Source: Candidatus Rifleibacterium sp. (lineage in GTDB: Bacteria > Muiribacteriota > Ozemobacteria > Ozemobacterales > Ozemobacteraceae). Taken from it: a stretch of 28,512 nt of DNA. Shown here piece after piece: positions 1-1,991 of the stretch. Each line of letters begins with the position of its first letter. The first letter of the stretch is position 1. A model generated the notes under the pieces. The model saw only the letters and a list, made by a program, of their open reading frames with translations. It did not search any database and was not told the origin of the DNA. The stretch covers positions 1-28,512 of the forward strand of contig DAOPYA010000055.1 of assembly GCA_035352635.1 (NCBI GenBank). Reading direction: 5' to 3'. The position numbers and the translations under genes were made by a program.

Positions 1-1
1 C

Positions 2-490
2 ATGTCGGAAATGCTCGCGAAAGTGGCGGCTATTTCCAAGACCAAGCAGAGGATTGAGAAGGGTCTCATGTTCAGCGATCCGACCTTTTGTGATGCCAGC
101 TGCAACTTTGGTGGCTTTGCTTCACCAAATAGATATCTGATTTTTTCTGATAATAAAACTCTTCTGGAGCCGGTCACGGGGCTTTGTGTCTGGAAGCCTG
201 GGAGCAGATTCATGGTGATCGATGTGAAGAGAACAAGAAGTCATTCTCAAATCACGTTGTTAGAACTTGGTGATGGAAAGATTCTGCACGAACGCGCTGA
301 GATTCTTCACGAAATTGAAAATAGTCTGGCCGAAACCGCTCGTCATTTCTTTGCTGTGGCAGGAAAAATCGATCCTTTGCGGGAGCATCAAACCCTGGAA
401 TGGCTCCAGAGAATCAGCGCTCCGCTCGGCATCAAAGATGATGGCAACTTTTTTGAAATTTTTAACGTTGATCGGAACGCGATCAATTAG
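2..490 (+). CDS. hypothetical protein, no recognisable family; may be the 3' part of a gene running off the window edge or may start at the ATG at 2
   Basis: 162-codon ORF running to TAA at 488-490 with an ATG at nt 2. No family recognised. The region is lower-GC (~40-50%) than the rest of the window. It is convergent with the ankyrin gene. Confidence 0.35.
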   Translation: MSEMLAKVAAISKTKQRIEKGLMFSDPTFCDASCNFGGFASPNRYLIFSDNKTLLEPVTGLCVWKPGSRFMVIDVKRTRSHSQITLLELGDGKILHERAEILHEIENSLAETARHFFAVAGKIDPLREHQTLEWLQRISAPLGIKDDGNFFEIFNVDRNAIN

Positions 491-656
491 TTCTGCCAAT
501 CGGATAAATGAATGCTTTTCCAGATTAAAGAGGCTTTTGTAAGCTGATTTTGACTGGTTTTTTATTCAGTAGCCCTTGGAAGTTTGCAGGCATGGCCTTG
601 CCTGGGGATTATTTTGTGATTTTGCGGCAGGTCGTGGTGTTGCTGTTGCGCCTGAG

Positions 657-1739
657 TTAAGGCTTTTTCTTCAGTTCGCAGATCGGGCACTTGTTCGCGT
701 CTGGCATGCAGGACGGGCAGATGTGATCGTGAAAAATACACTGGGAAAAGGTGTTAACCACTGTGGCGAGGTCGAAGGCTTTTTTGCAAATCGGGCATTG
801 AAAGGTCTTATTGCTTTTTCCGATGTTTTCGCGGCGATGAGACCAGCGCCAGATCGTATTCAAGGCATGTTCTGCTTTTTCCTGAAGAAGGCCGGAGGCG
901 GCCATGCATGGTTTGCATATCCTGTGTTCACGGTCTGATGATCTGCCGAAAATGCCGCCGGCACATGCAGAGCAGGTTGGTCGGCCGCACCATAAGCAGT
1001 GCCAGTAAGCATTTCCACGTTCCCCCTGTGCGACCTGATACGACCCGGAAAAGAAAGTTTTGTTGCAGATATGGCATGGCCCTCGCAGGCGCTGCGGATC
1101 AGCCCCATGTTTCAGCAGCATGTCTATCATCGTCGGGTTGTTTCTTTTATGCGCGGCCAGCAGTGGGCAATCGCCATCTATTCCCATGGCGTTCGGGTTT
1201 GCGCCGCCTTCGAGCAAGGCTCTGGCGAGTTTTACGTTTCCCCAATACACCGTCAGTGTGAGCGGTGTGGAAAAGTTTTCCTGTGACAGGTGTTCTGTCG
1301 AAACCCCATTTTTGATGAGAAAATCGACAAGATCAGGGTTTTTGCCCTGGATAGCCTTTCTAATCAGGTAACCTTCGCCTTCATAGGTGGTTTCGGCAAG
1401 CGTGGCTCCGTGTTTCAACAAGAGTTGCAGCCCCTCAAGATTACCGTTTTCGCAGCAGATGATGACGGCGGTGTGCCCCTTGCTGTTTCTTGCATCTGGC
1501 TTCACACCCTTTTCAAGGAGCAGGCGGATAAGATTGTTGTTATTGCCCTTCGCAGCGTAGATAAGTGAATCGCTGCCATTTTTCGCAACGCGAAAGATAT
1601 TGGCACCATTCTTGAAGATGCCCATCGCAACTTCTTCGTTTCCATGCTGCAATGCTTCGAAAAATTCAGAAACGCCCACACAATCAACCATTTCTCCATC
1701 AATCAGACGTTTAACTCCACATTTGAGCATTCTTATCAT
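657..1739 (-). CDS. ankyrin-repeat protein with C-terminal FYVE-like and RING-like (C3HC4-type) zinc-finger modules; eukaryote-like architecture
   Basis: 360 aa, ATG at 1739 preceded by GGAGAG plus a 6-nt spacer. The N-terminal ~200 aa carry about 5 ANK repeats (e.g. '...SLIYAAKGNNNNLIRLLLEKGVKPDARNSKGHTAVIICCENGNLEGLQLLLKHGA...', 'TPLTLTVYWGNVKLARALLEGGANPN...DCPLLAAHKRNNPTMIDMLLKHGADP'). The C-terminus has the module C-x2-C...YWHC-x2-C-x4-C-x2-C...H-x2-C-x2-C, which is FYVE/PHD-like. It is followed by C-x2-C-x15-C-x2-H-x3-C-x2-C-x6-C-x2-C, which is RING-like. GC is ~45-50%, below the window average. Confidence 0.75.
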   Translation of the reverse strand: MIRMLKCGVKRLIDGEMVDCVGVSEFFEALQHGNEEVAMGIFKNGANIFRVAKNGSDSLIYAAKGNNNNLIRLLLEKGVKPDARNSKGHTAVIICCENGNLEGLQLLLKHGATLAETTYEGEGYLIRKAIQGKNPDLVDFLIKNGVSTEHLSQENFSTPLTLTVYWGNVKLARALLEGGANPNAMGIDGDCPLLAAHKRNNPTMIDMLLKHGADPQRLRGPCHICNKTFFSGSYQVAQGERGNAYWHCLWCGRPTCSACAGGIFGRSSDREHRICKPCMAASGLLQEKAEHALNTIWRWSHRRENIGKSNKTFQCPICKKAFDLATVVNTFSQCIFHDHICPSCMPDANKCPICELKKKP

Positions 1740-1991
1740 TTGTTGCTCTCCAAATGTTCAGATTATTGAACCCTGCAAAAACAAAATTGAGTCTGTTCGA
1801 CGGCCCGGCATATCAGCCGGGTTGCTTTTTCTACAGCGATTCCTCACTTCGTTCGTCACAAGCTTTCGAAAAAGCAATCCCGTCTTCTCTCCGTGCCTGT
1901 ATATGATTTATGAGGGGGGCCTTAATTATGCAGTTATCAATAATCCCAAAGCAAATAAGTGCATAAAAGTCGGCTTTTGGCATTGTTTTAG

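Follow-up and report, generated by a model that had tools for sequence, protein, structure and literature searches.

Does the left end of a contig from an uncultured bacterium carry foreign DNA, or does it merely look foreign because it is AT-rich and encodes a protein with a eukaryotic flavour? The locus in question is positions 1 to 28,512 of contig DAOPYA010000055.1 (assembly GCA_035352635.1, Candidatus Rifleibacterium sp.), a stretch of 28,512 nt that is referred to here as the window. Its first two kilobases hold a short open reading frame (ORF), whose larger part is referred to as ORF1, and a gene for a protein of ankyrin repeats (ANK) and zinc fingers. A sequence-only reading of this DNA had proposed that positions 1-1991 form a segment of low guanine plus cytosine (GC) content that was acquired horizontally and that abuts native DNA at an AT-rich spacer.

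We consider it probable that a strain-variable region starts directly behind a conserved mvp-corA-slyX block, that window 1-2435 forms its proximal, mosaic edge, and that the pieces of this edge have different histories. Horizontal transfer is thus only partly supported. It is supported for nt 1-647, which appears to be accessory DNA scarred by an insertion sequence (IS), and for the DNA upstream of nt 1, but not for the ankyrin gene, a resident of the lineage, or for the spacer upstream of it, which likewise appears to be native; the segment does not behave as one unit. The comparisons below involve loci from other assemblies (given as L numbers), and the close homologues among them carry the source names Candidatus Rifleibacterium, Ozemobacteraceae or Riflebacteria. 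The identical ankyrin protein is found on four public contigs, one of which (CAZOMG010000017.1, from the metagenome-assembled genome (MAG) GCA_964580875.1) corresponds to the window over its first 28.5 kb.

Breakpoints at the left end of the window

The variable region starts at about nt 2435 and not at nt 1991, because DNA homology with relatives ends at the slyX stop codon and the adjoining eamA transporter gene, which the sequence-only reading had placed on the host side of its boundary, is not syntenic and lies outside the conserved block. Homology stops at window 2433 in the comparison with L090, whose CorA and MVP-like (major vault protein-like) proteins are 91% and 93% identical to those of the window, and at 2438 in the comparison with L005; eamA is absent after slyX in both. 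The genome that holds L090 has an 81% identical eamA orthologue on another contig, between a phosphotransferase system operon and a metallophosphatase gene, with homology limited to the coding sequence, and no remnants of that metallophosphatase gene, which follows eamA elsewhere, were found in the window. A strain that is 96.6% identical (L147) retains the order corA-slyX-eamA. We suggest that eamA was relocated to its post-slyX position in the species of the window.

The relatives themselves differ exactly at this breakpoint. Between slyX and a conserved pair of ATP-binding cassette (ABC) exporter genes, L090 (2707-13450) and L005 (11283-11316) differ by a 10.7-kb insertion or deletion. Its cargo includes a helix-turn-helix (HTH) gene, HicAB, an MmeI-type restriction enzyme and an antitoxin gene, all four lying between slyX and the ankyrin gene, then the ankyrin gene itself, 5.3 kb past slyX and in the same orientation, as well as an aldehyde dehydrogenase gene and an S9 peptidase gene.

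At the other end of the segment, the frame 2-490 is cut by the contig end and is 33 codons longer in L001. Residues 1-41 of the extended frame match the IS1634 transposase family of NCBIfam (NF033559) at profile positions 167-206 of 483 (E 8.9e-7), including a YPGNxxD-type stretch; at 28.3 bits the match stays below the 100-bit cut-off for full-length members, and unlike a full element only a fragment is present here. The frame exits the transposase near profile position 225 of 483 and then runs into an unrelated gene. Intact relatives of this gene, ORF1, are 173-195 aa long and fall into 10 homologue clusters (72-99% identity) with a differing N-terminus of about 30 residues. A contig of another MAG (L094), which carries ORF1 intact, is 99.6% identical to the window over 55-1141, and its homology begins exactly at nt 55, which places the junction at nt 54/55, in the middle of the transposase rather than at an IS end. 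The match of the extended frame, the differing N-termini and the start of the L094 homology therefore indicate that nt 1-54 derive from a transposase and are fused in frame to a truncated ORF1. The transposase piece is presumably dead, a truncated fragment of a family member and, on this alignment, not the end of an element; the ORF1 fusion is probably a pseudogene. What had been described as an orphan ORF is indeed without a recognised family, since ORF1 has no match in Pfam, PADLOC or PHROGs, but it is a chimera of two unrelated pieces. An alignment search of viral contigs likewise returned no relatives of ORF1, and its AlphaFold model (mean predicted local distance difference test score, pLDDT, of 41) is unusable. 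A Pfam YoeB_toxin match (E 0.03, 14.6 bits) was too weak and was disregarded.

The strains differ repeatedly to the left of the ankyrin gene, where three variants were found. The ankyrin gene of strain L146 is 97.3% identical to that of the window, but its downstream flank matches the window only as far as nt 648 and has no relation to it farther out. Given the intact ORF1 locus of L094, the absence of the ORF1 segment from L146 and the transposase fragment, nt 1-647 appears to be strain-variable accessory DNA and is probably mobile. The relatives of ORF1 keep similar company elsewhere. Upstream of the junction, the sister strain L094 carries 2.1 kb of DNA with 44.4% GC that adjoins the intact ORF1 and encodes, directly upstream of ORF1 (945-1759), PDC-M21A (E 3.6e-45) and a truncated PDC-M21B (E 1.7e-17); PDC-M21 is a candidate defence system of a winged-helix protein and an AbiEii-like nucleotidyltransferase, for which a literature search returned no papers. 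In L093, a type III restriction-modification pair precedes the ORF1 homologue, and both lie in an island of 41-47% GC between hydrogenase genes of 53-55% GC.

ORF1, which elsewhere travels with defence and restriction genes, lacks its first ~30 codons here. We propose that an IS-associated deletion removed them and fused what was left of the gene, in frame, to an interior part of the IS1634-family transposase. The IS copy would be present several times in the genome, and such a repeat could explain why each assembly stops at the left edge: relative to window nt 1, the contigs of all four assemblies end at +100, +35, 0 and -25 nt, a spread of ~125 nt. The sequence-only reading had guessed that the segment continues upstream of the window. 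This agrees with the strain-variable and probably mobile DNA at the left edge and with the transposase frame, which runs past the window in L001. Inspection of the flank for an integrase, a tRNA gene or repeats returned the transposase fragment, but no tRNA or tmRNA gene was found by ARAGORN in the 28.5-kb window and no integrase within it, so that insertion of a genomic island beside a tRNA or tmRNA gene was not observed there.

Comparison with relatives therefore bears out the expectation that the arrangement of 1-1991 is not conserved, but 1-1990 is not one insertion, as different strains and species break at different points (nt 54/55, ~648 and ~2435). The pieces vary independently, with the ankyrin gene kept where ORF1 is absent, and do not come and go as a unit. 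It could still be argued that the whole of 1-1991 is a single recent low-GC island, possibly of eukaryotic or other foreign origin, which abuts native DNA at nt 1991. The IS fragment at its edge and the L005 locus, which lacks both ORF1 and the ankyrin gene, would fit this, as would two features of base composition (see below). However, the strain breakpoints lie at nt 648 and ~2435 instead of 1991, the gene on the supposed host side is not syntenic, the spacer has a homologous intergenic counterpart in a relative, and both the distribution and the composition of the ankyrin gene (see below) are those of a native gene. A single island is thus largely refuted, and we regard it as very improbable.

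The mosaic edge of a variable region, by contrast, belongs to a well-known kind of locus. As in strain-variable islets and defence-island hot spots, gene content differs at a fixed point, here after slyX. The cargo in relatives (HicAB, ParE/antitoxin, MmeI-type and type III restriction-modification, PDC-M21) is that of defence-island hot spots too, as are the lower GC of the accessory part, the IS fragment and the assembly breaks. Unlike in such hot spots, no integrase, tRNA gene or flanking repeats were seen in the window, the left end of the region lying past the contig end, its own piece of the region holds no recognisable defence gene but only the broken ORF1, and the compositional contrast is small, at about 6-8 GC points. 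As a case of horizontal transfer the locus is of little weight, being one more small, IS-scarred edge of a variable region in an uncultured bacterium, and the compositional signal on which that case was built had been overstated. The features of this edge are listed in Table 1.

Table 1. Features at the left end of the window (coordinates in nt of the window).
Feature	Position	Strand	Remarks
IS1634-family transposase fragment	1..54	+	frame continues into ORF1; at least 100 nt more upstream in another assembly
ORF1, small accessory gene truncated at the 5' end	55..490	+	fused in frame to the transposase fragment
Spacer on the ORF1 side, accessory	491..647		strains break at ~nt 648, 9 nt beyond the stop codon of the ankyrin gene
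Gene for the 360-aa ankyrin/zinc-finger protein	657..1739	-	ankyrin repeats at residues ~20-215; FYVE-like eight-cysteine module at 222-278; RING-like C3HC4 module at 315-354
252-nt spacer upstream of the ankyrin gene	1740..1991		conserved element of ~150-200 nt at 1756-1898, possibly to ~1945
Small single-domain EamA transporter gene	1992..2429	-	Pfam EamA, E 7.2e-24; 6 nt after slyX
Synteny breakpoint, end of the conserved mvp-corA-slyX block	2430..2438		slyX stop at ~2435

Base composition of the first 2 kb

The GC dip at the left end is real, modest and borderline. GC content is 47.7% in 1-1991, 52.3% in the remainder of the window and 52.0% in the whole window; the host baseline, which comprises 36.6 kb (the window plus 8.1 kb taken from a further assembly of this genome), stands at 51.8%. 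A low-GC left segment therefore exists, but it is much weaker than had been described. The sequence-only reading set 38-53% GC in the first 2 kb against 58-63% in eamA, corA, the MVP-like gene and the genes downstream, figures that are wrong for most of the genes named (eamA 51.8%, corA 51.9%, MVP-like gene 54.8%). A GC content of 58% is reached only by two genes at 6.4-9.0 kb, and most genes at 13-28 kb have 48-54%. Taken as 60-nt stretches, 1-1991 spans 33-60% GC (median 48%) versus 30-73% (median 52%) elsewhere.

The first 2 kb are among the lowest 1.3-2.3% of sliding 2-kb windows, which run from 47% to 58% GC across the genome sequence, and are tied with 19.3-21.3 kb (47.1%). In a single-split entropy scan, the best GC change-point of the whole window is nt 2001, where G is 17.3, whereas 95% of shuffles in 100-nt blocks stay below 17.0. 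These are the two compositional features that would favour a single island; within the first 10 kb alone, however, the strongest break falls at 3925 and not at 1991. The AT-rich spacer at which the shift had been placed does exist, and the change-point lies beside it, but the change-point is borderline and the GC content of the spacer (42.5%) is typical: the spacers of the window have 38.7-53.8% GC (pooled 45.0%), and spacer 491-647, at 44.6%, is typical as well. Among 54 windows, the tetranucleotide signature of 1-2000 ranks 9th and its dinucleotide signature 17th, neither being an outlier.

At the level of single genes, the ankyrin gene is ordinary (GC 50.1%; GC at third codon positions, GC3, 56.2%; codon-usage z 1.2 versus the pooled genes of the window). 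The z of eamA beside it is 1.6. ORF1 has the lowest GC (46.0%) and GC3 (49.7%) among the credible genes and a z of 2.6. The top outliers are native genes, namely corA, mvp and an enolase-superfamily gene (z 4.4-6.8). Sliding GC, oligonucleotide and codon analyses thus yielded a borderline change-point but no deviant signature and no deviant ankyrin gene. The dip can be traced to three sources: a threefold excess of AT-rich spacer (21% of 1-1991 versus 7% elsewhere), the low-GC remnant of ORF1, and the repeat-coding 5' third of the ankyrin gene, which is AT-richer (46.8% GC). A contig-end GC dip beside a 'eukaryote-like' gene can therefore stem from spacers and a broken accessory gene, the eye-catching gene being an old resident, and this calls for caution.

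A second GC minimum (41-43%) occurs at window 20500-21300, where a 315-nt spacer and a small ORF (21038-21307) lie upstream of an HlyD/ABC/ABC-2 exporter operon. Dips of this size therefore arise among ordinary genes.

Should the dip then be read as an ordinary fluctuation, produced by spacers and a few AT-richer genes, with nothing acquired at all? The equally low stretch at 19.3-21.3 kb, which lies among housekeeping transporter genes, the borderline change-point, the typical GC of the spacer and the absence of an oligonucleotide-signature anomaly in the first 2 kb are all in keeping with this. However, a mere fluctuation leaves unexplained why a transposase fragment is present, why ORF1 is truncated and why the contigs break here, as well as the three strain variants to the left of the ankyrin gene, the low-GC, defence-type islands in which the relatives of ORF1 reside, and the bottom rank of ORF1 in GC and GC3. 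We therefore give this explanation little probability and retain the mosaic edge, of which only the leftmost piece would be acquired.

The ankyrin/zinc-finger gene

The ankyrin gene is an old resident of the lineage, neither a recent nor a eukaryotic import. This conclusion follows from its ordinary composition, from seven orthologue clusters, from the positional orthologue in L090 and from the absence of a eukaryotic match to its tail. Full-length orthologues (61-70% identity) occur in seven other 90%-identity clusters, and every named source is Riflebacteria or Ozemobacteraceae; the hits next after these clusters share the repeats only. With the C-terminal half as query, five proteins, all bacterial-type, were retrieved at E<=1e-3 among 1.84 billion representatives, one of them standing for the Riflebacteria cluster, and no eukaryotic protein was found among these representatives at that threshold. 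The orthologues have a GC content of 49-52%, tracking their host loci. A metagenome scan with the single ankyrin protein yielded 0 confirmed loci, and a rescan with the ankyrin alignment yielded five orthologous loci only. The suggestion of a eukaryote-like gene that entered by horizontal transfer thus finds no footing in codon usage, in distribution or in the zinc-finger half. We found no literature linking Riflebacteria to ankyrin proteins.

The flanks of this gene are recurrent breakpoints, as breaks are seen 40 nt upstream of it in another species and 9 nt downstream of it in L146. Homology between genomes is limited to the ankyrin coding sequence and ~40 nt upstream. Indeed, two strains of another Riflebacteria species (L085 at 7961 and L086 at 3798) encode an identical ankyrin protein and diverge fully 40 nt upstream of its start, where one has a ParE/antitoxin pair and a helicase/methylase system and the other has two unknown genes. 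The neighbours of the ankyrin gene differ again in other genomes, and no remnants of the antitoxin or ParE genes that precede it elsewhere were found in the window.

Within the gene, change is concentrated in the repeats, which evolve about five times faster than the neighbouring proteins. The ratio of nonsynonymous to synonymous substitution (dN/dS) is 0.24 for the ankyrin gene versus 0.04-0.06 for its neighbours, and 0.30 for the repeat region in the comparison with L146. In this latter comparison (L146 33-1115), all 29 nucleotide differences fall at gene positions 154-648, inside the repeats, and the other 588 nt are identical; the cluster of differences is a recombination-patch mosaic. Our explanation for this piece of the edge is that a resident gene, whose flanks act as breakpoints in several species, would have fast-evolving repeats and may exchange patches between strains.

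Several observations weigh against the mosaic-edge explanation or limit its reach. Identity between the ankyrin protein and its positional orthologue in L090 is as low as 68%, versus the 91-93% of the flanking CorA and MVP-like proteins, and the protein is an outgroup to all other orthologues, which are 77-86% identical among themselves. Replacement of the allele from a distant Riflebacterium would explain both facts as well as fast evolution does, and the proportion of synonymous differences (pS), at ~0.5 in every pair, is so near saturation that it does not discriminate between the two. Further points concern the frame of the analysis. The transposase call rests on 41 residues and 28 bits versus a cut-off of 100; the four assemblies that end at the same edge may share overlapping raw data; the host baseline for composition is limited to 36.6 kb; the taxonomy (phylum Riflebacteria, family Ozemobacteraceae) consists of source-given names; and the left boundary lies past the contig end, with the extent of the accessory region and its mobility genes out of view.

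Xenologous replacement, in which the position of the ankyrin gene is ancestral and the allele was swapped in from a distant Riflebacterium by homologous or illegitimate recombination, is the most probable of the alternatives. It would count as lateral acquisition within the phylum, and it is compatible with the mosaic edge as an explanation for the other parts. Besides the low identity and the outgroup position, the restriction of intergenome homology to the coding sequence and its ~40-nt leader, as well as the recombination-like patch of 500 nt that separates two close strains, would agree with such an exchange. On the other hand, pS to L090 (0.52) is no higher than that of corA (0.49) or mvp (0.55), all near saturation, the GC and codon usage match the host, and the dN/dS values of 0.24-0.30, together with the invariant zinc ligands, agree with a resident gene whose repeats experience relaxed or diversifying selection. 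On balance we take replacement to be a serious but minority possibility, and a fast-evolving resident gene remains our preferred account.

What kind of protein does this gene encode? It is an ankyrin-repeat protein, both by Pfam (Ank_2, 91.6 bits against a cut-off of 27.3; Ank, 72.1 bits against 21.1) and by the modelled repeat fold, in which AlphaFold predicts paired helices over residues 23-210 with a pLDDT of mostly 70-96; the zinc region scores <50. Matches of the protein in PADLOC and PHROGs arise solely from the repeats. The C-terminal 146 residues comprise two eight-ligand zinc modules, and every Cys/His ligand is invariant in nine sequences. Module 2 reads C-x2-C-x14-C-x2-H-x3-C-x2-C-x6-C-x2-C, opening with CPIC, which fits the C3HC4 RING spacing exactly (cross-brace consensus C-x2-C-x(9-39)-C-x(1-3)-H-x(2-3)-C-x2-C-x(4-48)-C-x2-C). 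RING profiles score below their cut-off (12-17 bits versus 27; zf-C3HC4_3 12.9-16.7, with Sina_RING and zf-RING_2 weaker), and the best match by sequence to a solved structure is the RING of RNF126 (E 0.014). Module 1 gives a sub-threshold match to Pfam FYVE (18.9-22.5 bits versus 27.8, profile positions 11-64 of 67). FYVE domains bind phosphatidylinositol 3-phosphate (PI3P) through the motifs WxxD, R(R/K)HHCR and RVC. Where the basic R(R/K)HHCR would be expected, every orthologue reads YWHC(L/S)W instead, and no WxxD is visible. Judged by its sequence, module 1 is thus FYVE-like in cysteine spacing only and not a FYVE domain. The call of an ankyrin/zinc-finger gene was therefore correct, but without a significant eukaryotic counterpart to its zinc-finger half.

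The same combination of ankyrin repeats and two zinc modules occurs in two non-orthologous proteins (P0252, P0253) with 28-33% identity in the tail, so that this architecture is a very small family which extends outside the Riflebacteria orthologue cluster. Several known proteins resemble parts of it. Legionella AnkB, AnkH and AnkX and the Anks of Coxiella and Wolbachia are likewise bacterial proteins with several ankyrin repeats. However, the protein is not a member of the Dot/Icm effector families of NCBIfam (AnkH, AnkY, AnkX), its best score being 54 bits (AnkH), via the repeats only, against cut-offs of 500-1400. Unlike the Ank effectors of intracellular bacteria, moreover, it comes from a lineage of environmental metagenomes, as judged from source names, and the gene is conserved across Riflebacteria rather than patchy. 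ANKFY1 is a eukaryotic protein with ANK and FYVE domains. Module 2 shares its C3HC4 spacing with eukaryotic RING E3 ligases such as RNF126 but, unlike them, scores below the Pfam gathering thresholds. Similarly, module 1 shares the eight-cysteine spacing of FYVE-domain proteins but, unlike them, lacks the basic motif. With the bacterial Prok-RING_1-4 families of Pfam the protein shares a zinc module of the binuclear treble-clef type, and the ankyrin gene adjoins conflict-type genes in relatives; unlike members of those families, the protein gives only a faint Prok-RING_4 match (E ~0.09-0.18). Families of prokaryotic RING fingers have reportedly been described by Burroughs, Iyer and Aravind, whose work is cited in PMC4506424. 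No ubiquitin-like, E1 or E2 genes were found beside the ankyrin gene at the loci examined.

The near-unique two-zinc tail, the fast repeats and the exchange of patches between strains leave room for a functional speculation. The ANK/FYVE-like/RING-like protein could be a fast-evolving conflict protein of free-living Riflebacteria, either E3-ligase-like or an adaptor, used in defence or against eukaryotic grazers, and its gene could mark a recurrent recombination hot spot where cargo made up of defence genes, toxin-antitoxin genes and IS elements is exchanged right up to its start and stop codons. We hold this to be rather unlikely as it stands. More interesting than the question of transfer, in our opinion, is the by-product of a lineage-restricted ankyrin/double zinc-finger family whose flanks serve as breakpoints in several species.

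The spacer element and neighbouring genes

The other by-product of interest is a structured intergenic element of ~150-200 nt that is conserved and common to unrelated operons. Since its stretch 1756-1898 is homologous to intergenic DNA of a relative, the spacer upstream of the ankyrin gene is, on this comparison, native intergenic DNA and not foreign. The element is 78% identical over 147 nt to L005 15049-15189 (extended copy 15049-15240), which lies upstream of the ABC-exporter pair and has the same orientation relative to its downstream gene as the window copy has to the ankyrin gene. The ankyrin-proximal 40 nt of the spacer resemble the upstream regions of ankyrin orthologues. On the plus strand, a G+C-rich, terminator-like hairpin followed by a T-run is found at 1801-1824, and 16-nt imperfect inverted repeats lie near both ends; the minus-strand RNA fold of the spacer has a free energy of -64.5 kcal/mol (z -3.0). 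No Rfam match was obtained in 1-2700 at E<=1, so that the element falls into none of the described RNA families. The element could be similar to a miniature inverted-repeat transposable element (MITE) or could be a shared leader RNA, and a native spacer carrying it would complete the mosaic. Searching viral contigs for a 16-mer of the spacer gave 22 matches that extend over only 16-24 nt, and these were put down to chance.

Within the conserved block, slyX (2436-2690; 82 codons) stands out in the comparison with L090, with a pS of 0.12 and a proportion of nonsynonymous differences (pN) of 0.13 (ratio ~1), whereas its neighbours have a pS of ~0.5. The low pS looks like unusual conservation at the nucleotide level, although 82 codons are a small sample and the 5' extension of the ORF overlaps the 3' end of corA. 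In the contig of the 96.6% identical strain (L147), positions 1-180 have no match to the window and corA is called at only 245 aa, which may reflect either a breakpoint inside corA or an assembly artefact. Finally, the gene at 3773-6298, divergent from corA, encodes a protein of 841 aa with Vault_3 repeat domains and the shoulder domain of the major vault protein. With 91-93% identity to its counterparts in sister genomes, it counts as a 'eukaryote-like' gene that the lineage conserves well, and in other genomes it shows no linkage to the ankyrin gene.

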